Part shown: in pieces, positions 27,934 to 38,033 of the stretch
Layout of the letters: each line of letters opens with the position of its first letter
Position numbering within the stretch: position 1 is the first letter of the stretch
IMG/VR virus record: IMGVR_UViG_3300032288_005212
Location: 1 to 64,000 of that record
Length of the DNA stretch: 64,000 bases
DNA from: an uncultured virus (IMG/VR IMGVR_UViG_3300032288_005212)
Taxonomy: Duplodnaviria > Heunggongvirae > Uroviricota > Caudoviricetes
Direction: 5' to 3' (one strand)
Position numbers and translations under genes: made by a program
The notes under the pieces: model-generated
What the model was told of the DNA's origin: nothing
Databases searched by the model: none
The model's input: the letters and a program-made list of their open reading frames with translations, nothing else

Positions 27934-28214
27934 TTTACTTTATTCGCCCAATAGGCAGCAGAAAGCTTGCCTTTGGCGATATTTTTTGCATGACGCGCTT
28001 TAAACGATCTCCGACGAGCTGCATACGACTTACTCTCACCCTTCTTTTTTGGTGAACCCTTGACACCTTGCTGCCCGAATCGAATTGTTTTGACCTTTGA
28101 ACCGACTTTCGCAACTACAATATGCGATTTTTTGGGATGGCTTGGCGTTCGCTTGGGTTTGTTATACCCTGATACGCCAGCTCGCTTTAATCGTGAGTCT
28201 CGCTTCTTTTTCAT
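27927..28214 (-). CDS. Highly basic small protein of a widespread marine-phage family
   Basis: YNKPKRTPSHPKKSHIVVAK..IRFGQQG...SFKARH...SAAYWANKVKW. Confidence 0.7.
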   Translation of the reverse strand: MKKKRDSRLKRAGVSGYNKPKRTPSHPKKSHIVVAKVGSKVKTIRFGQQGVKGSPKKKGESKSYAARRRSFKARHAKNIAKGKLSAAYWANKVKW

Positions 28215-28414
28215 TTTTGTAAACTAATGCCTCCGAGAAGTCCAACGAGAGCTCCGACAATTGTAGAAAAAGCTGGTCCGAGTATCTCAAAGATTTGGTC
28301 GTTGTTTACAGAGTCGCTAAAAAATCCGAAGAGAAGAGTAGCGACCATTCCGACGCATACGAGAGCAAGTGTGGAAATTGTAATAAGAAGAATGAGTTGT
28401 ATCACTCTATCCAT
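28211..28414 (-). CDS. Small 2-TM membrane protein
   Basis: Two hydrophobic helices; coupled to neighbours. Confidence 0.55.
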   Translation of the reverse strand: MDRVIQLILLITISTLALVCVGMVATLLFGFFSDSVNNDQIFEILGPAFSTIVGALVGLLGGISLQK

Positions 28415-28733
28415 AGTTTATTGTAGTATTTCCCTTTGTTACCGTTACTTTGTTTCCATCAATGTTAACGGACATTGGTTCTTTTGCTTCTGCGATAAGC
28501 TTTTCGATGATTGCGAGTTCTGGTCGTTCTTCATCCTTGGTGCCGGTGATACCCGCTAAAATGGAAATCATTGCCATGGTGGCAGTTGAAACAAGTCCGA
28601 TTACGGCTGGAAGAGTTTCGGGTGAAAGAAATGCGGATGAGATAACTCCTACGATTACGAGAAGTACTATCCAGGGGATTGCTGTCTTTCCGATTACTTT
28701 ACTTGTAAGTTCCTTTGCGGTTTCTTCTTTCAT
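28407..28733 (-). CDS. 2-TM membrane protein
   Basis: Start reassigned to ATG 28733 (GGAGG SD), downstream of the promoter at 28756-28784. Confidence 0.55.
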   Translation of the reverse strand: MKEETAKELTSKVIGKTAIPWIVLLVIVGVISSAFLSPETLPAVIGLVSTATMAMISILAGITGTKDEERPELAIIEKLIAEAKEPMSVNIDGNKVTVTKGNTTINYG

Positions 28734-28755
28734 AATGGGCACCTCCATGAAGAGT

Positions 28756-28784
28756 AGTATAAAGGGTATGAAGATAAAAGTCAA
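28756..28784 (-). promoter_or_regulatory. sigma70 promoter heading the fibre/terminase operon
   Basis: TTGACT-17-TATACT. Confidence 0.75.
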
Positions 28785-28914
28785 GATAAAATTTTTGGAA
28801 GGGTTAATTTAGATTATTAAGCGCCTTTCGAGTTGAAAAAATCCCAAAGTTGCGCGTGAAGGTGTGCGCCCGGCTGTGTGAATATTACCAGTCTCGGAAC
28901 CGCCCCTCCCCACC

Positions 28915-28930
28915 TGGCACGCCCCTTGCA
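28915..28930 (+). promoter_or_regulatory. sigma54 -24/-12 box
   Basis: TGGCAC-GCCCC-TTGCA. Confidence 0.7.
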
Positions 28931-28966
28931 TGTTCAAAACCTGGCACGAAATTTTCCACAGCAAAA

Positions 28967-29010
28967 TGGTAATATTACCACTTGCCTTTGCCCAAAGCCA
29001 CCACTATACT
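28967..29010 (+). promoter_or_regulatory. TGGTAATATTACCA palindrome + sigma70 promoter
   Basis: Perfect 14-bp palindrome at 28967-28980, then TTGCCT-17-TATACT. Confidence 0.7.
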
Positions 29011-29036
29011 GTGCCCATCACATAGAGGAACACGTC

Positions 29037-29345
29037 ATGCCGAAGATCACCCAAGCCCAAGAGTATATGTGGAAGCCCGCGATGGAAGCCTACAATTCTT
29101 GCTGTGGCGGATGCGGCAGCCCGCTTGATCTGGAATACGATCACATTGTGCCCCGTTGCCTTGGCGGTTCCGATCATGTTTCTAATATTCAAATCCTGTG
29201 CCATCATTGCAACCAACACAAAGGCAAGGTAGCCTTTCCCAAGGTATCGCCCCGTATGCCTGAGATGTCGATTCCGCAGATTCTCGAGAATCGCAAGGCC
29301 TTTGTGTACTCGATCAGAACATGGAAAATTACCATTGCATCCTGA
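29037..29345 (+). CDS. HNH endonuclease
   Basis: CGGCG..LEYDHIVPR..GGSD..SNIQILCHHCNQHKG; start ATG 29037 after GAGGA. Confidence 0.85.
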   Translation: MPKITQAQEYMWKPAMEAYNSCCGGCGSPLDLEYDHIVPRCLGGSDHVSNIQILCHHCNQHKGKVAFPKVSPRMPEMSIPQILENRKAFVYSIRTWKITIAS

Positions 29346-29391
29346 TTCGACCTACCCTATACTGACTCCACCTAAACAAGGAAACGCAAAC

Positions 29392-29613
29392 ATGAACGCA
29401 CAACAGATCCTCGACGTACTCAAAACCGGCGTGTACTTCGTCACGTTCGAGAAGGACAACGGAGAAATCCGCAGCATTAAGGGCTCGGCCCCTACTACTG
29501 CGAACATTCGCACAGATGGAATCGTTCCCATTGTGGAAGATGGAACAGGAGCATGGAAATCCTTCCGCGCTTCTGCTATGCTCACGATCGTACCCGAAAC
29601 CCTTGTACTCTAA
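29392..29613 (+). CDS. WYL_2-like / Sm-like SH3 beta-barrel protein
   Basis: L..G...VTFEK.NGEIR...G....WKSFR motif. Confidence 0.65.
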   Translation: MNAQQILDVLKTGVYFVTFEKDNGEIRSIKGSAPTTANIRTDGIVPIVEDGTGAWKSFRASAMLTIVPETLVL

Positions 29614-29623
29614 GGAATACGCC

Positions 29624-29922
29624 ATGAACAATTGCAAATCGTTCGCCCAATACCTCGCCCTGATCGCAAACCAAAAGCAACGGCAACGGCCCGCGATCTT
29701 CTGGCCCGTACCCTCCAGCAAGAGGAAGGCGGCATGAAAGACTTTAACATGAACCCGGAACTCTATCGCAAATTCCGGGCCGATCTTCTGGGATGGTGTG
29801 CCTTTTATCGCGCATACTCTGCGAACGAATGCGCGACGGTTGGCAAGGTAGCCCACCGTGCAATCCGCCGACAGATGGCCCACCTTCGTCAATCCTACTT
29901 TGTGGGGAATATTACCTATTGA
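29624..29922 (+). CDS. Two coupled small hypothetical ORFs (29624-29737, 29734-29922)
   Basis: AAGGA SD; ATGA overlap. Confidence 0.5.
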
Positions 29923-29979
29923 CGAGATGCCTGGCCGTATGTCATAATGGTGGCAACGGCCAGGGCCGCGCCGAAAACC

Positions 29980-29995
29980 TGGCACGCTTATTGCA
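29980..29995 (+). promoter_or_regulatory. sigma54 -24/-12 box
   Basis: TGGCAC-GCTTA-TTGCA. Confidence 0.7.
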
Positions 29996-30003
29996 TCAGT
30001 TGA

Positions 30004-30034
30004 CCTAGGGCCAAGATGCGAATCATTCTCATTT
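30004..30034. repeat. CCTAGG-N4-Fur-like palindrome, copy 1
   Basis: CCTAGG gcca AGATGCGAATCATTCTCATTT. Confidence 0.85.
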
Positions 30035-30161
30035 AGGCCTGGTCCGCGCCGATTTTACCACACTAAAATATGCGCTGTCAATACCTCAAGAATGTGAACA
30101 AATACCATTGCAATTCGAGTCTTCCTCTGTCATACTGATCCCACCAGATAGAGGAAAACAT

Positions 30162-31036
30162 ATGTCACACGTAGCCTTTGAACTTCGCAACGAACGCAGC
30201 AACATAGACTGGGCCGTATATATCGACGGCAAACACTGGAAAACCTTTCCGGGCGATCGCCACCTTGCAGAATACAAGGTCAAGGAAATGTGCAAGCGGA
30301 AGACCGCCGAGACTGGCCGTCGTTGGGATGTGGTCGCTGTCCACTGGTAATATTACCGCTTGACGGCGAGCGATTGATCCGCCATACTGTGCCCATGTTC
30401 AACGGAGATCAGACAATGCAAAACGAAATCCGCGCTGCACAATTCCAAGCCGCACAAGCCAGCTTGGCCGCCTTTGACTGCTACCGCACTGCGAAGCGTG
30501 AGATCATCAAGGGAGATCGCCAGATCGGCCAGCTCTGGAGCCGGTGGGGCGATATGCTGATGGCGATCAACGCGAAGGCGAACGATGACATTCGTTTTCT
30601 GGAATGGGCGCAAAGCATGGAAGAAGCCTACGTTGACGGGTACTATGGGGAGTGATTATGAGAATCGGAAAACTGCCGAACCGCGGCATAGTTGACAAAC
30701 TACTAGTAATAGTTCAAGGCCTGGCAACAGTGGCGGATGGCCTAATCATGATCGGCAGCTTCGGATTCTATGGTTCGATGATGTCGATGGATATTTCACG
30801 GTATCGTGCATGGCGCATGATTCAGAGAGGCAGAAAAAATGCAGTGTGAACACCAGTTCAAACCCGGAAAGATTGTAATCGGCACGCCAACAAATGGTAG
30901 CAGTTACAATCCGAAAATGTGGGGCCGTGGCGAAGGCATCTGGCTCGATGGTCGAAAGGCCAGGCTAGTTCCATGCGAAAAGTGTGCCAAGTGTGGTAAG
31001 ACTCTTGTAGACCATAATTTGTACTACGGCTGGTAA
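30162..31036 (+). CDS. Four small pre-early ORFs (30162-30350, 30416-30655, 30652-30849, 30839-31036)
   Basis: SD sequences, coupled overlaps, own promoters at 30108-30136 and 30360-30388. Confidence 0.55.
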
Positions 31037-31039
31037 ATC

Positions 31040-31055
31040 TGGCACGCGTCTTGCA
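31040..31055 (+). promoter_or_regulatory. sigma54 -24/-12 box
   Basis: TGGCAC-GCGTC-TTGCA. Confidence 0.7.
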
Positions 31056-31064
31056 GGGCGAGGC

Positions 31065-31095
31065 CCTAGGTAGTTGTTGCGAATTATTCTCATTT
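31065..31095. repeat. CCTAGG-N4-Fur-like palindrome, copy 2
   Basis: CCTAGG tagt TGTTGCGAATTATTCTCATTT. Confidence 0.85.
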
Positions 31096-31236
31096 AGCGC
31101 GCTTGACAAAAAGGCGCGCTTCGCGCCAACGCGTGCAAAATCAAGAGTAAATTTTATGTACTAAGTCACAAATAATTCTTGACTCCTGGGATTGTCAGTC
31201 TGTATAATGGCGACTTCAGCAATGGAGATCGAAACG

Positions 31237-31461
31237 ATGCATCACTACACTGAAACTCTGGAATCTGGCAACTGGCTCATCGAACTCAGCCCGACCACTG
31301 AATACGGGTATTTTGAGAATCAAAAAACCGGCAGCGGTGGCGGCCTTTGGTTTGAAGGAAACGAGCTGGTAGACTATGATGGTGTTCTGTCGCTGCCAGT
31401 AGCAGTTGCAAGCGCGCTCACTGGCGCTGGATATGTACTCGGAGAGGAGTTTTTTGCGTGA
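31237..31461 (+). CDS. Hypothetical phage protein
   Basis: GGAG SD; YGYFE....G.GGLWF....LVDYDGV motif; promoter TTGACT-18-TATAAT at 31179-31208. Confidence 0.6.
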   Translation: MHHYTETLESGNWLIELSPTTEYGYFENQKTGSGGGLWFEGNELVDYDGVLSLPVAVASALTGAGYVLGEEFFA

Positions 31462-31859
31462 AACTGGTTATCAGTAAAAAGTTCCCGAGAGCCGTTCGGA
31501 GAATAATCCGAGCGGCTATCGCTGCAAGTAATGCACACGCTCCGATGAACGTGAGAACTCTTATTGTAAAACCTACAAAAGGTCACGATTATCACGGACT
31601 AGCGAAAGAAAACGAAGGTGTGGCGATTATTGAAATCTGCCATACTGAGCCCGATTATCTCGATACTGTATTTCATGAATGCTACCATATTTATCAATAC
31701 TCGCAGGGTATTGTAAAATCAGAATATAATGGATTTAAATGGCGCGGTGTTTATATTCCGCTGTTTCTTTACAATATGTTTCATTCGTTTGTGCCTTTTG
31801 AAATATCAGCAAAGGCATATGCTAAGAAAATGTGCAAAAAGGTGGAGGCATTGCAATGA
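31458..31859 (+). CDS. Zincin-like metallopeptidase
   Basis: TVFHECYHIYQ (HExxH)...PFEISA. Confidence 0.7.
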   Translation: MKLVISKKFPRAVRRIIRAAIAASNAHAPMNVRTLIVKPTKGHDYHGLAKENEGVAIIEICHTEPDYLDTVFHECYHIYQYSQGIVKSEYNGFKWRGVYIPLFLYNMFHSFVPFEISAKAYAKKMCKKVEALQ

Positions 31860-32065
31860 TTCGAATTACTGCAGCATATGGGCGCAATTACTATTCCGCT
31901 GAAATTGTGCGTCAAGATTGGGAAAGCGATAAAGACTTTCGAATGATTGACGGCGGCGGATATATTAATCGCTCCGATTGGCTAAAATATAATAAAGGGT
32001 TGGATAGCATTGTGTTTTCTAATGGTGTGGTATTAATGCACCTTGAGCATGGTGTACTTCCATGA
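31856..32065 (+). CDS. Hypothetical protein
   Basis: GGAGG SD; AYGRNY.S...DW...KDF motif. Confidence 0.55.
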   Translation: MIRITAAYGRNYYSAEIVRQDWESDKDFRMIDGGGYINRSDWLKYNKGLDSIVFSNGVVLMHLEHGVLP

Positions 32066-32073
32066 TGGAGGTA

Positions 32074-32107
32074 CCTAGGTGCCAAATGAGAATAATTCTC
32101 ATTTGGC
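32074..32107. repeat. CCTAGG-N4-Fur-like palindrome, copy 3 (perfect 13-1-13)
   Basis: CCTAGG t GCCAAATGAGAAT-A-ATTCTCATTTGGC. Confidence 0.9.
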
Positions 32108-32210
32108 TGTCACTGCGCCAAATAGCGTGCAAAATCAAGAGTAAAAATTCACACTTGAACCTGGGCGGTGAGATGCTATACTGCTCAAGTCTAAACCGGA
32201 GAGCCAAACC

Positions 32211-33535
32211 ATGATGACTCGCTCGCAACACGCCGAACTCGCCGCAGAAGTCGCTGAGGCCGTAGTAAAGCCCACGCAAACCGTCGGGCAGGTGGCAGAG
32301 CATATTTTTAATGCGGCTGAAGTCATGCGGAACATTATGCTTGATTCCGCAAACATGACGCAGCAGGAACTGCACGGGCATATCCAGTTTGCAACCGAAT
32401 TGCAACGTGCATATGTACGTCGCGCAACTATGCTGGGGATACTCTGATGCTGTATAATCTCGGCACACTGGTAATGCTTTTTACTGGCATACTAGTCTCG
32501 GGGTATGTTGCTATAAAAATGCTCGAACACTACTTTGGAGAGTAAAACATGAATTTTTCGATGACGATTGAGAATGCTACGGTTTCGACTGTCGTTCGGA
32601 ACGAATACGAAATTATTCGGCATATCGAAGCCTGCTTTCTCGCGGCTGGATATGACTCCGATACTTTTGCTGAGTATCTGGCACACTATCTGGAGCTTTA
32701 TCATGAGATGACGGTACTTCCGGAAAAAGAGTACACGCAGGCGCTCGCCGAAGCTCGGGAGGAAGCCTATGATGAAGGTTTCGATGATGCTACTGCCGAA
32801 AAAAAGGAAGAGGCAGAATATGCCTGCAATTGCCCGATGTGCAAAGATCCCGTCGCCTATGATGCGGGCTGGAATGATGGATTCCAAGGCGAAGAAAATC
32901 TCGACGAAGATATGGCAAAAATTCCCGCCTATATGGTAGGATACGAGAATGGAAAGATCGACCGAGAAAAAGGCCGCTACAATGGCGAAGCAATCTGAGG
33001 AGTAATGATATGATCATCACGCGTATGTCGATTTTCTCTGGCAAGATTCACTCTTGGGATATTCCGGTAACGGAAGAGCAGATCGATCGCTGGCAGCGCG
33101 GTTGTCTGATTCAGAATGCGATGCCGCACTTGACTGCGGATCAGCGAGAGTTTATTATGACGGGCACCACTCCTGATGAGTGGAATCAAATGTTTGGGGA
33201 GGATGCAGCCTAATGCACGCTTTTCAAATGAACTACGGTACAGTGGATATGGGAATGAATAAATATACACGGGCCGCGATTGCTTTGGGCGCTACCGTCG
33301 AGGACGGTATAAACTGGACGTGGGCAAATCATTTTGCCACGCGAGAGCTGGCTCAGGAATTTATCAATATGTTTCCTGAGATGGAAACACGCGGCATCTA
33401 TACTGATAGCCCGGGCTTTTCTGTGAGGTTTCGATGAAAAATCCTGTAGCAAAGTTTAGCCGCCAGGTCAACCGATCGGCGGTTCAGCGGGATCGTAAAA
33501 AAGCCGCAAAGCGCGGATATAGGAAACACAAATGA
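32211..33535 (+). CDS. Five small pre-early ORFs (32211-32447, 32549-32998 acidic, 33010-33213, 33213-33437, 33434-33535 basic MKNPVAK...RKHK peptide)
   Basis: GGAG SDs, coupled stops/starts; 33010 ORF has the IQNAMPHLTADQREFIMTG phage motif. Confidence 0.6.
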
Positions 33536-33867
33536 GAAACACAAAAAACTATCTTGCACTCGGGCACGATATTGAAGAAAACTTTTTCTTTATAAAGATT
33601 GGGTTATCTGATGACCCCGAAGAACGTGTATCTAAACTCAGAATGAAACTGCTACACGTTTGGGAAAACATATGGATATCTGATGGCGACTACTCTTGCA
33701 CAGTAGAAGCTTTTTTCTTAAAAACTATGGGTTACTCTCATTATACTTATAGTAACCATAAATTTTCAGGGTCATCCGATTGCATTGGAAGATTTAAAAC
33801 AAAAGAAGAAGCTTTATTCATTGGCAGGCAAATGGTAAAGTTTATTTTATCCCTTCAATATGACTAG
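33532..33867 (+). CDS. GIY-YIG / T5orf172-like protein
   Basis: FIKIGLSDDPEERV..L motif; AT-rich relative to flanks. Confidence 0.55.
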   Translation: MRNTKNYLALGHDIEENFFFIKIGLSDDPEERVSKLRMKLLHVWENIWISDGDYSCTVEAFFLKTMGYSHYTYSNHKFSGSSDCIGRFKTKEEALFIGRQMVKFILSLQYD

Positions 33868-33878
33868 GGCAGAAGGCC

Positions 33879-33934
33879 CGATGCGACCCATTCGCATCGG
33901 CGACCTAGGTCGTTGTTGAGAATCATTCTTATTT
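33879..33934. repeat. Double Fur-like boxes flanking one CCTAGG (copies 4 and 5)
   Basis: CGATGCGACCCATTCGCATCG-N4-CCTAGG-N4-TGTTGAGAATCATTCTTATTT. Confidence 0.8.
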
Positions 33935-33949
33935 CCGCGCGGAGCGCCA

Positions 33950-33978
33950 ATTATAGCGTGCAAAATCAACGGCGTCAA
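33950..33978 (-). promoter_or_regulatory. Leftward sigma70 promoter with GC-rich discriminator
   Basis: TTGACG-17-TATAAT-TGGCGC. Confidence 0.75.
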
Positions 33979-34009
33979 GTGTAAATGTGTGTAATATTGC
34001 ACAAACTCC

Positions 34010-34040
34010 AAATGAGTCTGGTTCTCATCTCGCACCTAGG
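34010..34040. repeat. Fur-like box-N4-CCTAGG, copy 6 (inverted)
   Basis: AAATGAGTCTGGTTCTCATCT cgca CCTAGG. Confidence 0.75.
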
Positions 34041-34267
34041 GCGCGCCCCTGGCGCTTGTCAATAGGAAATATTTCACATTCCTGGGGGTGGATCTGCGGG
34101 CGGGGAGGCCTCATAATAGCGGCTTCTGGTGAGGGTTCACCGGAAACCGAAAGGGGAAGTCAATGGCAATATTCACACAAATTCGGAATGCGCTGCGGTC
34201 ATTCTTTCGGGTACAATGTGAAACATCGGTGGGGCAGTGTGCTTCACCCAAATCGGAGAGTAAAACT

Positions 34268-34579
34268 ATGTCGCTCTACACTGAGTCGATGGTGTCGGAA
34301 CTGATGGCTCGCGCGAGCTGGTCGTATGATGACGCGGTTGCGTTCGCTGAGAAGCATTCCAGCGTGTCGGTACGTTCGGTTATCAGCAAAATCAAGTCTC
34401 TGAAGCTGGACTACACCGCGAAGCCGAAAGCTGCGACGGCGAAGACTGACAAGGTGCGGAAGTCGGAGATCGTGGGCGAGATCGCACTCGCGCTCGGTAT
34501 TCAGGCTGACGCAATCTCGGGCCTTGCCAAGGCTGACGCCGCTTGCCTTCGCGTTCTTCTGGCGAAGGTTGCGGGCTAA
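34268..34579 (+). CDS. T5 A2-like small DNA-binding protein, paralog 1
   Basis: YT..M......SVRSVISKIKSL.LDY...VRK.EIV.EIA...I.GL.KAD resembles T5 A2/D3-type proteins; GGAG SD. Confidence 0.65.
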   Translation: MSLYTESMVSELMARASWSYDDAVAFAEKHSSVSVRSVISKIKSLKLDYTAKPKAATAKTDKVRKSEIVGEIALALGIQADAISGLAKADAACLRVLLAKVAG

Positions 34580-34779
34580 TGGTTCGGGTCGCTGCCATCT
34601 TGGGAACCGGGGCAATGTGCATTGCCCCCTTTTTCATCGACACGCTTCCTGGCAAATTGTGTGCCATATGCGGCCTGTTACTTTTGACAATACAGGCACT
34701 TGATCTGCGCGCTTACAATCTGGTACTCTTAAATCTGGTCGGCATTGCTGGCTACACTTTTTCAAGCATGGGAGCCTAG
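34579..34779 (+). CDS. Small membrane protein
   Basis: Hydrophobic; TAATG coupling. Confidence 0.55.
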   Translation: MVRVAAILGTGAMCIAPFFIDTLPGKLCAICGLLLLTIQALDLRAYNLVLLNLVGIAGYTFSSMGA

Positions 34780-34782
34780 AAT

Positions 34783-35259
34783 ATGTACCGCTCGATTTTT
34801 GATCTCGATGGGACTGTAATCGATTCCACACACCGCCACGCTACGCTGCCTGATGGGTCGCTTGATCTGGCACATTGGATTGAAAATTCCACGCCTGAGA
34901 AAATCGCTGCGGACTCTTTGCTGCCGCTTGCCGATTATATGCGGATGTTCTTCCCGCATCACGAGGTGCTGGTATGCACTGCCCGCGTGATGGGGGAAGC
35001 CGATTACGAATTTTTGTTCGATAACGGATTGCAGGCTGATGCGATTCTTTCGCGCCCTGCTGGCAACCGTCTGCCGGATGGGTTCCTTAAGGAAATGCTG
35101 CTGCGCGATCATGCAACACGCCGCGGCCTTACTTGGGTGGAATTTGTAAAAAATACCACGATCTTCGATGACAACGCTTCTGTGCTTGACACGCTCGGAC
35201 GGGTTGGAATTCGGACGATCTGCGCCCGCACTCTTAACCGGGTGCTGGCGGAGGACTGA
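34783..35259 (+). CDS. HAD-superfamily phosphatase (possible nucleotidase, T5 Dmp analogue)
   Basis: FDLDGTVIDS motif I, VCTAR motif II, K and FDDN motifs III/IV. Confidence 0.8.
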   Translation: MYRSIFDLDGTVIDSTHRHATLPDGSLDLAHWIENSTPEKIAADSLLPLADYMRMFFPHHEVLVCTARVMGEADYEFLFDNGLQADAILSRPAGNRLPDGFLKEMLLRDHATRRGLTWVEFVKNTTIFDDNASVLDTLGRVGIRTICARTLNRVLAED

Positions 35260-35270
35260 CACCGACCAGG

Positions 35271-35307
35271 TGCTGCGAATGGTTCTCATTCGCATTGCCG
35301 CCCTAGG
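35271..35307. repeat. Fur-like hexamer array-N4-CCTAGG, copy 7 (inverted)
   Basis: TGCTGCGAATGGTTCTCATTCGCATTG ccgc CCTAGG. Confidence 0.75.
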
Positions 35308-35405
35308 TCGCCGACCTGGGCGTGTCAATAGGAAATAATACCGCTTAACTGGGATGTGCATCATGGTATACTCCACGTCCCAACTACTGCTCGGGAGAGC
35401 ATTTC

Positions 35406-36125
35406 ATGGCTAAAAAGCAATTCTATCTGATCATCGATACCGAAACGACAATCGATGAAAAAGTCGCAGATTTCGGTGCCGTTATCGTTGATCGGAAAGG
35501 CCGCATTGCTGCCCAATGTGGAATTCTCATTAATGGCATTTACAATGATCGGGAAAACCATCCGCTCTTTTATAATGAATACTCGGGCGACCTTTGGAAA
35601 AAGTCGAGCCTTGATAAGCGATATAATAACTATTCGGCAATGCTCGCCAACGGTTCCCGTATGCTCGCATCAATTCCTGCGATTAATACTTGGCTCGCAA
35701 AAGCGGCAAACAAGTTTAATCCCACACTGACCGCATATAATCTGGCATTCGATCTCGGTAAATGCGTCAATACTGGAATTGATCTTTCCTATTTCGAGAA
35801 TCGGTTTTGCCTTTGGCACGCTGCATTTAATAAATGGGCGCATACTAAAAACTATCGCAATTTCGCTCTACAAATGCACGCTTTTAATGCTCCGACTAAA
35901 TTGCAAAATATGTCGTTTAAAACGAATGCGGAAACAATGGCACGTTTTATTACTAATTCGCCCGATATGCCTGATGAACCGCATACCGCACTCGAAGACG
36001 CAATCTATTATGAATTGCCAATTCTGAAACGATTAATCGAAACGACAGAGCGTAATGTATTTATGAATCCCGAGCCTTTTGACTGGCGCAAGGTTCAGGT
36101 CAAAGATTGGTTTACCGCTAAATAG
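35406..36125 (+). CDS. DEDDh 3'-5' exonuclease
   Basis: IIDTET, AYNLAFD and EPHTALEDA motifs. Confidence 0.9.
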   Translation: MAKKQFYLIIDTETTIDEKVADFGAVIVDRKGRIAAQCGILINGIYNDRENHPLFYNEYSGDLWKKSSLDKRYNNYSAMLANGSRMLASIPAINTWLAKAANKFNPTLTAYNLAFDLGKCVNTGIDLSYFENRFCLWHAAFNKWAHTKNYRNFALQMHAFNAPTKLQNMSFKTNAETMARFITNSPDMPDEPHTALEDAIYYELPILKRLIETTERNVFMNPEPFDWRKVQVKDWFTAK

Positions 36126-36233
36126 GTGACATATGACAGAATTGGAAACTTTGAAAATGCGAATGGAAATTATTCGGACGGTTTGTCCGATTCTTTCCCT
36201 CATCCTTCAATTGATAATTCTGGGGCGTTTGAT

Positions 36234-36644
36234 ATGAAAATATCTAAATCCTTTCGCAATTCGCAACGCAAAATAATCGAGGCGGCTGTTAAAAATAGCC
36301 GCCTTGATTTGAATCTGCCCGATCTGCGCGATATTAAAGTAAAATCGAATAAATCAAAATCGCTCGACGGTTGGGCTGATGTTTCAAATGGGTATGCGGT
36401 AATTTCAATTAATCGCCGATTAAAAGGCGCGGAATTGTTTTGCTGCGTTGCACATGAAATGGTACACGTTAGCCAATTACTATCCGGCCGCCTTGTAACT
36501 GCCGCTCCGAATCTTTTTATCTGGAATGGAAAGGTTACGCGATTAACGGAGGAAAAAATGGCTAAAATGAATCCCGCAAAATATCGGGCATTGCCTTGGG
36601 AGCGGGAAGCATATTATTATGGCGATTCTTTTTTGGGAGATTAA
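36234..36644 (+). CDS. Zincin-like metallopeptidase (paralog of 31458)
   Basis: VAHEMVHVSQ...Y..LPWEREAY. Confidence 0.75.
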   Translation: MKISKSFRNSQRKIIEAAVKNSRLDLNLPDLRDIKVKSNKSKSLDGWADVSNGYAVISINRRLKGAELFCCVAHEMVHVSQLLSGRLVTAAPNLFIWNGKVTRLTEEKMAKMNPAKYRALPWEREAYYYGDSFLGD

Positions 36645-36647
36645 AAC

Positions 36648-36794
36648 ATGGGACCGTGGCTTGTTTTGTTTGTCGGTTTGATTTATTTAATTATTGCGGC
36701 GGATTTTGCCTTTCGGAATAATAACTGGTGGATGGCATCCGTTTATTTTGGATATGCGTTTGCCAATGTGGGGCTTTTTCAAATAGGGAAATAA
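36648..36794 (+). CDS. Small 2-TM protein (48 aa)
   Basis: Hand translation MGPWLVLFVGLIYL...FGYAFANVGL; GGAG SD. Confidence 0.55.
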   Translation: MGPWLVLFVGLIYLIIAADFAFRNNNWWMASVYFGYAFANVGLFQIGK

Positions 36795-36822
36795 TACCGC
36801 TTGACGCCAGGAGGGCGCGGGC

Positions 36823-36853
36823 CCTAGGTAGATGATGCGAATCATTCTCATCT
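36823..36853. repeat. CCTAGG-N4-Fur-like palindrome, copy 8
   Basis: CCTAGG taga TGATGCGAATCATTCTCATCT. Confidence 0.85.
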
Positions 36854-36871
36854 CGCTCCTAGCTTGCGCCT

Positions 36872-36887
36872 AGCAAGAACCATGCCA
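36872..36887 (-). promoter_or_regulatory. sigma54 -24/-12 box (minus strand)
   Basis: TGGCAT-GGTTC-TTGCT. Confidence 0.65.
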
Positions 36888-36915
36888 ACATTTGTGGGAA
36901 TAATGCCAGCGCTTC

Positions 36916-37104
36916 GCGCCAGCCAGAGTGGGAAATCAATGTCAAGTTGCGTACGTGCAATTTTATTGGGAATTTTTCACATACTTGTCTCCGCGCCAGC
37001 GTACCACAGTGCGAAATCAATGTCAAGTAAGAAAGACAAAGAACATATGTGAATTTTTCTCAGGTCTGCGCCATTATACGAGTGCGAAATCAATAATGTC
37101 AAGT
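36916..37104 (-). repeat. Three tandem ~76-bp units, each a leftward sigma70 promoter-like element
   Basis: GCGCCA...AGTG(C/G)GAAATCAAT..GTCAAGT at 36916, 36993 and 37068. Confidence 0.8.
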
Positions 37105-37225
37105 AATTTCCACACAGAATAAATGTGAATATTACAGCAGTCTTCCGCTTGCGTTTTCTCCTGCCAGCCTTCATAATACTCTTGTTGTTGAGGCAGTCCC
37201 TAGTTCAAATTCAATGGAGAAATAT

Positions 37226-37522
37226 ATGAGTGCTTATTCTAATTCGATGGTCACCGAGCTCTGCGCCTCCGCGCACACTTATGAAAGCGCAGCAGCTTTT
37301 GCTAGCAAGCACAATCTGTCGACGCGCAGTGTTGTGAGCAAGATCAAGTCGCTTGGCCTGGACTATAGGAAAAAAGAAGTAGTTTCTGTTAGCCAGACGC
37401 GGATTCGGAAGGCTGACGTGGTTGCAGAGATTGCCGCCCGGCTTTCGCTTGACAGCGAAAAGTTGGCGGGGCTGGGGAAAGCGGACGCTGCTAGTTTGCA
37501 GCAGCTTTTGAAAGCTATTTAA
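37226..37522 (+). CDS. T5 A2-like small DNA-binding protein, paralog 2
   Basis: Clearly alignable to the 34268 ORF (STRSVVSKIKSLGLDY, IRKADVVAEIA, GLGKADAA). Confidence 0.65.
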   Translation: MSAYSNSMVTELCASAHTYESAAAFASKHNLSTRSVVSKIKSLGLDYRKKEVVSVSQTRIRKADVVAEIAARLSLDSEKLAGLGKADAASLQQLLKAI

Positions 37523-37525
37523 AGC

Positions 37526-37552
37526 AAAAGCCGGCATTTGCCGGCTTTTTTT
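37526..37552 (+). terminator. Intrinsic terminator
   Basis: AAAAGCCGGC-ATTT-GCCGGCTTTTTT. Confidence 0.85.
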
Positions 37553-37733
37553 ATATTTGTCCACTTTTGGCAAAAAAACTTGACTTTTTTGGGCTAGAAA
37601 GCCCGCCACCGAGTTGCAATCCGTTTTCCCCCAGCTACCCCTCTTCGAGGGAAAATTCTGAATACCTATTCGAAAAAACTTGACTTTTTTTGCTCATGAT
37701 GATATAATATATACTTTTTTGGAGGGTCTAAAA

Positions 37734-38033
37734 ATGTATACAGAAGATGAAGTAACTATTCTACAGCAATATCCGAGTCTTTCCGTGGAAGAACTGGCAG
37801 CTCAGCTGGGACGCAGTGAGAGATCAATTATTGGAAAGCTGAGTCGCCTGGGAATTTATCAGCGAAAAACCTATGTGAGCAAAACTGGTTCACCACCCAT
37901 TAGCAAACTGGAAATTGTGGCTGAGATAGAGTCTGCATTGCAGATGAAGCTTGAAGGGCTAGAAAAGAGTCCAAAAGGTGTATTGCTTTCTTTGCGAGAT
38001 AAACTGAGCGGCGGGGCATTTCCAAATTGCTAG
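37734..38033 (+). CDS. T5 A2-like small DNA-binding protein, paralog 3
   Basis: MYTEDE...SERSIIGKLSRLGIY...ISKLEIVAEI...LEGLEKSPK; promoter TTGACT-17-TATAAT at 37680-37708. Confidence 0.65.
   Translation: MYTEDEVTILQQYPSLSVEELAAQLGRSERSIIGKLSRLGIYQRKTYVSKTGSPPISKLEIVAEIESALQMKLEGLEKSPKGVLLSLRDKLSGGAFPNC

Follow-up and report, generated by a model that had tools for sequence, protein, structure and literature searches.

The closest described counterparts of the elements treated here are the bacterial promoters read by the RNA polymerase holoenzyme that carries sigma-54 (RpoN), for instance glnAp2, pspA, nifH of Sinorhizobium meliloti and the Salmonella sites verified by chromatin immunoprecipitation (ChIP) and tabulated in PMC3844500. 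In the sequence of their -24 and -12 elements, in the strict spacing between the two and in the preferences of flanks and spacer, they are the same as a set of boxes, TGGCAY-N5-TTGC, which we describe in a distant T5-like phage. The phage is known from the IMG/VR virus record IMGVR_UViG_3300032288_005212, of 106,084 bp and rated complete, and the first 64 kb of this record make up the stretch analysed here (the window). Unlike the bacterial promoters, the phage boxes come without an evident activator gene or enhancer, they occur in a lytic phage beside sigma70 promoters, some of them face gene ends, and in related phages they are gathered in dense arrays that are almost never seen in bacteria.

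The use of sigma-54 by a phage was found in the literature for YuA only, and nothing was found there on sigma-54 sites in T5-like phages, the two subjects meeting just in an indirect effect of rpoN, through RpoS, in Salmonella. The sigma-54 sites of YuA are reportedly, from the work of Ceyssens and co-workers in 2008, drivers of its late genes, those for virion and lysis. According to PMC5053324 and bioRxiv 10.1101/2023.10.13.562163 the development of this Pseudomonas phage depends on host sigma-54, and YuA is similar to the phage of the window in having host sigma-54 sites without a sigma-54 or an activator of its own. Unlike those of YuA, the sites described here belong to a T5-like pre-early block, they are tied to a module composed of a Fur-like palindrome and the hexamer CCTAGG, and in relatives they are arrayed beside DnaA boxes.

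The biology of T5 is described as purely sigma70-driven in PMC7472727, and the Davison preprint (bioRxiv 10.1101/866236), which deals with the untranslated repeat regions of the T5 terminal repeat, their paired DnaA boxes and an injection stop signal, leaves sigma factors unmentioned. The present locus resembles this terminal repeat in its conserved non-coding blocks, rich in sites for host proteins, in a dmp-bearing region that is injected first in T5 and would be so here by analogy; it differs in that the T5 genome has no sigma-54 box, while the window has neither an enrichment of DnaA boxes nor detectable A1 and A2 genes. A more remote parallel is offered by the leading end of T7, where the host sigma70 promoters A1-A3 stand in tandem, about 100 nucleotides (nt) apart, all pointing inward and firing without an activator. 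There too sites for the host polymerase are clustered at the start of the early region near the end that enters first, but they are of the sigma70 kind and activator-independent. The evidence given below speaks against the purely sigma70 picture for a whole branch of T5-like phages, the cultured Vibrio phages included; new in it are the T5-like pre-early setting, the boxes that bracket the dmp operon and face inward, their link with a Fur-like palindrome and the presence of the boxes in cultured Vibrio phages.

Boxes in the gaps of a pre-early-type block

The pattern TGGCAY-N5-TTGC has five exact matches in the window against 0.22 expected, a number that none of 100 shuffles reached, and a count over the whole genome, which the first-pass annotation of this DNA had suggested, added no others in the 106 kb. 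All five lie inside one block of small genes at 28.8-37.2 kb, which we read as the pre-early region because it holds a homologue of dmp, the T5 pre-early deoxynucleotidase; by analogy with T5 this block would enter the cell first and would sit in the terminal repeat. Four of the five matches are intergenic and occupy the gaps between operons, these gaps making up about 22% of the block. The near match at 28942 and the gene for dmp are listed with them; scores are those of a position weight matrix (PWM), and ORF stands for open reading frame.

28785..37213, plus strand: pre-early-type block, 24 small genes in six operons, 47% GC against 35-39% in the flanks
28915..28930, plus strand: box 1, sigma-54-type, TGGCACGCCCCTTGCA, PWM score 21.5
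28942..28957, plus strand: near-box, TGGCACGAAATTTTCC, 27 nt after box 1, GC of the -12 element absent
29980..29995, plus strand: box 2, sigma-54-type, TGGCACGCTTATTGCA, CCTAGG 8 nt after it
31040..31055, plus strand: box 3, sigma-54-type, TGGCACGCGTCTTGCA, PWM score 21.9, CCTAGG 9 nt after it
34652..34666, minus strand: fifth exact match, TGGCACACAATTTGC(C), ending in TTGCC, antisense inside a small membrane-protein ORF (34579-34779, 66 codons), PWM score 16.0
34783-35259, plus strand: dmp homologue, 36% identical to dmp of Vibrio phage X1 and 31% to that of T5, E-values 1e-14 to 1e-18
36872..36887, minus strand: box 4, sigma-54-type, TGGCATGGTTCTTGCT, best PWM score, 27.7

The first-pass annotation had placed the four boxes and the near match correctly, and its count of four stands for the intergenic copies, the match at 34652-34666 on the minus strand having been overlooked. 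This fifth match is probably fortuitous, since it lies in an ORF, has a low score and is destroyed by two synonymous changes in the relative L037. The four intergenic boxes match fully the form TGGCAC-N5-TTGCW, within which the GG and GC doublets are 10 nt apart, and their scores range from 21.5 to 27.7, as compared with 16.0 for the copy in the ORF.

Box 1 sits in the gap from which the late genes, on the minus strand, and the first pre-early operon diverge, and a sigma70-like -35 hexamer comes 52 nt downstream of it. Box 2 is found between a sigma70-like promoter (29919-29948) and the promoter of the gene at 30162-30350, and box 3 starts 4 nt past the stop codon of the gene at 30839-31036, upstream of a TTGACT-18-TATAAT promoter (31179-31208). 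These three boxes are upstream of, and co-oriented with, the operons starting at 29037, 30162 and 31237, each of them stands ahead of a sigma70-like promoter, and the downstream ATG comes 96-172 nt beyond the predicted sigma-54 start, so that the earlier statement that no box serves an ORF directly is too strong. Box 4, behind the last pre-early operon, faces the 3' end of a gene and points back at the operon and at the palindrome; the pre-early block is in this way bracketed by inward-facing boxes, 1-3 being directed forward and 4 back.

The near-box at 28942 looks like a decayed second member of a tandem pair, as its -12 GC is missing and its distance of 27 nt is the usual tandem spacing of the family. 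A 16-mer, TGGCACGAAAATTTCC, which is a -24 element without the -12 GC, occurs both in the related locus L011 (4222-4237) and in the very distant Vibrio phage Chester (L119:3573-3588), and the window copy TGGCACGAAATTTTCC is 1 nt different from it; this 16-mer may be a separate conserved element.

The distances of 1065 and 1060 nt between boxes 1-3 could suggest duplicated cassettes and, together with the fortuitous look of the match at 34652, a view of the boxes as chance matches or functionless relics of a segmental duplication. The three segments of about 1.06 kb were found to share no coding similarity, and segmental duplication was rejected as the source of the spacing; with the result of the shuffles, the conservation of the boxes in relatives and their recurrence in loci picked without reference to the motif, an origin of this kind is hardly credible. 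A sigma-54 or an activator encoded by the phage itself was another candidate that had to be rejected, there being no match to Sigma54_activat (PF00158) or Sigma54_DBD (PF04552) anywhere in the phage genome, and the remark of the first-pass annotation that no bacterial enhancer-binding protein is visible holds beyond the window for which it was made.

Spacing, conservation and distribution of the boxes

For comparison, 80 metagenome loci (379 kb) were picked by dmp homology alone. They contain 48 boxes, where about 1.4 are expected and where the reversed pattern has none, and the spacing in them is strict, with 48 matches at N5, none at N4 or N6 and 0-4 at other spacings. The half-site TGGCAYG taken alone is at chance level in these loci (108 against about 92), and in 44 of the 108 cases TTGC follows at the exact distance. 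Preferences extend to positions that the search pattern does not force: of 49 boxes, 43 have a G directly behind TGGCAY and 42 a pyrimidine directly ahead of TGG, and their spacers are rich in T. A profile built from 764 further independent boxes reads YTGGCACGr-N3-TTGCWw, with a purine after the G and A or T after TTGC, and these preferences agree with the sigma-54 consensus YTGGCACGr-N3-TTGCW, reportedly compiled by Barrios and co-workers in 1999. A sorting of boxes into coding and non-coding ones by the longest ORF was discarded, as obvious intergenic boxes fell in spurious GC-rich ORFs.

The phage boxes closely resemble the ChIP-verified Salmonella sites, and several of them differ from those in the spacer only (PMC3844500). 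In L011, which is about 80% identical, the module around box 2 (29932-30060) is almost identical, with flanks at about 78% and box 2 itself unchanged; box 1 has there kept its GG and GC and carries GTGC instead of TTGC, a variant that is also present in the Salmonella glmZ site (PMC3844500). In L036 all consensus bases of box 4 are kept and the spacer has changed. Taking together the strict N5, the consensus at unforced positions, the consensus bases kept with drifting spacers and the recurrence in relatives and in cultured Vibrio T5-like phages, the simplest reading is that the four intergenic boxes are very probably sites bound by the host sigma-54 holoenzyme, and the idea of host sigma54-polymerase sites, voiced in the first-pass annotation, obtains strong support from this sequence comparison.

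In the cultured Vibrio T5-like phages all boxes are in pre-early or terminal-repeat regions: X1 has six, all within 3.2 kb of its 116-kb genome, PG07 has five within 3 kb, 234P1 six within 4 kb, and Chester two in each terminal repeat. One box was also found in Pectobacterium phage DU_PP_V. The boxes of X1 and Chester lie in untranslated pre-early stretches, beside pairs of DnaA boxes with a 3-nt gap, Fur-like palindromes and CCTAGG, and a part of this stretch in X1, with the segment of the DnaA pair, shares 80-87% identity with the terminal repeats of enteric T5-like phages, in the region to which Davison assigns the injection stop signal. The order of box, AT-rich palindrome, sigma70 promoter and gene recurs in relatives; the dmp loci have 32 boxes upstream of dmp, 22 of them in its orientation, and 16 downstream of the operon, all of which point back.

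Pair scans of IMG/VR gave tandem boxes in at least 120 viral contigs and head-to-head boxes in at least 120, the reversed control giving one match, and tandem or head-to-head arrays with up to 11 boxes are present in more than 200 viral contigs. The array spacing is 26-27 nt in tandem and 18-22 nt head-to-head, these ranges being partly set by the search patterns. In 219 new loci, of 30-70% GC, arrays comprise 2-10 boxes, and the bases that stay constant are in every case those contacted by sigma-54. In 596 Gb of prokaryote genomes a tandem pattern of three boxes is present four times, three of these four being plain tandem repeats; it is present in at least 44 of the viral loci listed.

A scan for a box followed by CCTAGG also retrieved podovirus-like phages of about 37 kb, with genes for a primase-helicase, a DNA polymerase, a terminase and a portal, in which the terminase operon and the small early genes diverge from a gap filled with as many as 11 boxes. 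Two loci show such a gap at its fullest, L019 (3394-3705) and L021 (1882-2194), with 11 boxes in about 300 bp and a perfect DnaA-box pair (3-nt gap) in the middle of the array. A related group (L008) has a complete record of 36.9 kb; for the box regions of L002 and L008, blastn found no counterpart among isolated phages. In L189 (1964-2205), from a complete 55.9-kb phage record of 64% GC, 10 co-oriented boxes follow each other at 26-30 nt and seem, on a crude ORF map, to be directed at the 3' end of an operon on the minus strand; the genes neighbouring the arrays in L189 and L268 gave nothing informative when searched against PHROG.

The arrays bring in the question of whether the boxes merely resemble sigma-54 sites and are read by a different protein, such as a regulator or packaging protein of the phage or some other factor of the host. 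Like operators, the head-to-head pairs amount to long imperfect palindromes, the arrays often adjoin the terminase operon, where packaging sites occur, and two G after TTGCW are over-represented, which is outside the published consensus. The spacers of paired boxes are, however, non-complementary, so that the conserved feature is not a hairpin, and the boxes of the window are spread over 8 kb instead of lying at a single packaging site. Moreover, the invariant bases are those contacted by sigma-54, at an exact spacing, in phages of 30-70% GC and of at least three unrelated genome types. A different binding protein is improbable, as unrelated phages of diverse base composition share a single specificity, and phage-specific binders would not hold it over such distances.

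Proposed promoter use and possible silent docking

The reading that we rank first, and propose tentatively, is that the four intergenic boxes are selected docking sites for the host sigma-54 holoenzyme and work as high-affinity promoters without an enhancer. The holoenzyme would park on them as a closed complex, and an active ATPase of a host activator would open the boxes from solution, with no enhancer of their own. Such firing by host activators is speculative; the candidates would be PspF, which damage to the membrane at injection would release, or, when nitrogen is limiting, NtrC. The outcome would be a second, sigma70-independent entry to the first operons and a convergent transcript at the far end of the block. 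Consensus sites with a T-rich spacer, that of S. meliloti nifH among them, give rise to strong closed complexes, and no enhancer close by is needed for their activation. Promoter use is supported by the siting of three of the boxes in this genome, which is that of upstream promoters, by the order of box, palindrome, sigma70 promoter and gene seen again in relatives, by the prevailing co-orientation with dmp and by the precedent of YuA.

Promoters for short RNAs, which the first-pass annotation had offered among its explanations, did not gain support: no plus-strand terminator separates a box from its gene, the leaders show no unusual degree of structure and Rfam gave no match, and short structured RNAs or a known RNA family were rejected as candidates.

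Several observations weigh against the promoter reading. Neither this phage nor 49 of the 50 array-bearing phage records yielded an activator ATPase or a recognisable enhancer; the one record that remains has a weak match to the sigma-54 activator domain (PF00158), and no shared upstream enhancer was seen. Every pre-early operon already has a sigma70-like promoter, to judge from consensus matches. Box 4 is directed at the 3' end of a gene rather than at a gene start, and so are the box at nt 182 of Chester and 16 boxes of the metagenome loci. In the arrays of related phages, at 26-27 nt in tandem and 18-22 nt head-to-head, polymerases on adjacent boxes would obstruct one another, an unexpected arrangement for promoters, and such arrays are nearly absent from bacteria.

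The same arrays point to a static use of the boxes, in which a long-lived closed complex of sigma-54 or its holoenzyme would never fire and the bound protein itself would matter. The boxes could then constitute a class of phage-specific DNA elements that exploit a polymerase binding tightly and yet silent, and would not be ordinary promoters. They might serve as a non-transcribing barrier, such as a head-on roadblock or insulator, at the borders of operons or the ends of the genome, as a part of a nucleoprotein plug formed with DnaA and a Fur-like protein on the first-injected DNA (for an injection stop or end protection), or as a sink depriving host responses of sigma-54. In favour of static docking are the crowding of as many as 11 boxes into 300 bp, in either orientation and at a spacing close to the minimum, the abundance of tandem and head-to-head pairs in viral contigs against a single match of the reversed control, and the rarity of three-box arrays in prokaryote genomes. 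The frequent facing of gene 3' ends and the phages without a detected activator agree with it as well, and so does the position of the boxes next to DnaA-box pairs in X1, Chester, L019 and L021, which is the layout proposed for the T5 injection stop signal (bioRxiv 10.1101/866236).

What holds for the relatives is nevertheless not the picture in this genome, where the boxes are single and three of them are placed and oriented like ordinary upstream promoters. Paired DnaA boxes of the T5 type, present in X1, Chester, L019 and L021, were not found here, and DnaA boxes in general are not enriched, with 15 near-matches in the window against 17.6 expected and one degenerate copy in the pre-early block. 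The conserved orientation would be needless for a pure sink, and one infecting genome has too few sites to titrate sigma-54, of which a cell has about a hundred molecules; some reverse boxes are already followed by intrinsic terminators. We keep static docking in the second place, as a possible reading, after the use of the boxes as enhancer-less promoters.

Either phages have a hitherto unknown route to open sigma-54 promoters without an enhancer, or the silent closed complex is itself used as a tool. In the Vibrio T5-like phages the sigma-54 sites are in untranslated DNA that, by T5 analogy, would enter first, beside DnaA boxes proposed to stop injection, and this bears on two long-open questions, the control of the two-step injection of T5-type phages and the switching of pre-early genes. 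Both readings are directly testable with X1, PG07, 234P1 and Chester in culture on Vibrio species.

Palindromes, repeats and genome context

The surroundings of the boxes contain further repeated elements, listed here with the first gene of the block.

29037-29345, plus strand: HNH endonuclease gene (Pfam HNH_5 and HNH), first gene of the pre-early block
29919..29948, plus strand: sigma70-like promoter TTGACG-18-CATAAT, a consensus match only, with the palindrome GGGAATATTACC before it
starts at 28968, 30346, 35331 and 36787: similar pairs of promoter and palindrome, consensus matches only
30004..30032, no strand assigned: CCTAGG with Fur-box-like palindrome, ATGCGAATCATTCTCAT, downstream of box 2
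31065-31093 and 36823-36851: equivalent CCTAGG/palindrome modules with a box
32074-32102, 33904-33932 and 35273-35307: CCTAGG/palindrome modules without a box; a more degenerate copy at 34008-34040
36923..37116, no strand assigned: three iteron-like repeats, GAGTGCGAAATCAATGTCAAGT, 73-81 nt apart, adjoining box 4 behind the last pre-early operon and conserved in L036

A closeness of the boxes at 29980, 31040 and 36872 to a CCTAGG/Fur-like element had been claimed in the first-pass annotation, and it is exact for the first two, which end 8-9 nt before the hexamer; box 4 ends 9 nt before a CTAGG that belongs to an imperfect hexamer, read as CCTAGC on the plus strand, and it is across the palindrome that the perfect CCTAGG is found. 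Since the boxes end 8-9 nt before it, a sigma-54 start about 12 nt after the GC is predicted to land inside the hexamer in all three cases. As a general rule the association fails: CCTAGG is nearby in just 4 of 942 boxes of other phages, a general link between box and hexamer was rejected, and the tie is lineage-specific. Seven of the eight CCTAGG hexamers of the genome are within 30-37 kb, where they accompany the Fur-like palindrome rather than the boxes, the palindrome, ATGAGAAT-N-ATTCTCAT, coming after the hexamer. A search of IMG/VR for the combined pattern of CCTAGG and palindrome gave no exact match.

The Fur-box-like palindrome, AATGAGAAT-N-ATTCTCATT in seven copies over 30016-36851, is one symmetric base off the Vibrio-type Fur box, and Vibrio phage X1 has both the canonical Fur box and this variant. 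Its position with respect to the box varies, being downstream in the window, immediately upstream in loci of the L040 type and 25 nt upstream in those of the L053 type.

The sigma70 promoters that the first-pass annotation had reported before the downstream genes were seen again, as consensus matches only. In five of the sigma70-like promoters the -35 hexamer is preceded, at a distance of 2 nt, by the palindrome GGTAATATTACC (or GGAAATAATACC), at 28968, 29905, 30346, 35331 and 36787, and relatives have GTGAATATTACC or GTGTAATATTCAC in its place; it could be an UP-element-like sequence or the site of a regulator. An inverted repeat, CCTGGCCGT / ACGGCCAGG (29919-29975), flanks the -10 element of the sigma70-like promoter there and, with the GC-rich stretch that follows, is fully conserved in L011. 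The inner end of the T5 terminal repeat is rich in repeats, and the iteron-like repeats GAGTGCGAAATCAATGTCAAGT may correspond to it. Three more of the gaps between operons contain a related motif, GCGTGCAAAATCAA, at 31128, 32122 and 33953, and both the repeats and this motif are conserved in L036 and in other dmp loci.

The phage itself is a distant T5-like siphovirus, as indicated by the identity of its terminase (49%) to those of Vibrio T5-like phages and of its portal (38%) to those of enteric T5-like phages. Its terminase, portal, head protease/capsid fusion, tail tube and tail-tip proteins match phage families, and these related terminase, portal, head and tail proteins, with a genome of 106 kb where about 105-125 kb are expected, are those of a T5-like (Demerecviridae-like) phage. 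The leftward late genes, on the minus strand, start from about 28.8 kb. As in the T5 terminal repeat, which carries an HNH insert, an HNH gene is found in the pre-early block, which it opens here. Homologues of A1 and A2 were not found by tblastn, nor were end repeats in the assembly; megablast and tblastn of the block and of a 511-aa protein against isolated phages gave no match, and a 239-aa exonuclease-like protein had no relatives in an IMG/VR protein search.

The GC content is 46-51% at 28000-38000 and 32-42% in the rest of the genome; as related dmp loci have 42-52% GC, the pre-early block may have been acquired from a GC-richer relative. Beyond the window, at 75458-75833 of the genome (L114:958-1334), there is a permuted, two-piece gene for transfer-messenger RNA (RF04321, 93.7 bits). 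Its match to the betaproteobacterial family of this RNA is below threshold and gives a possible hint at the host, and three tRNA genes are located directly upstream of it.

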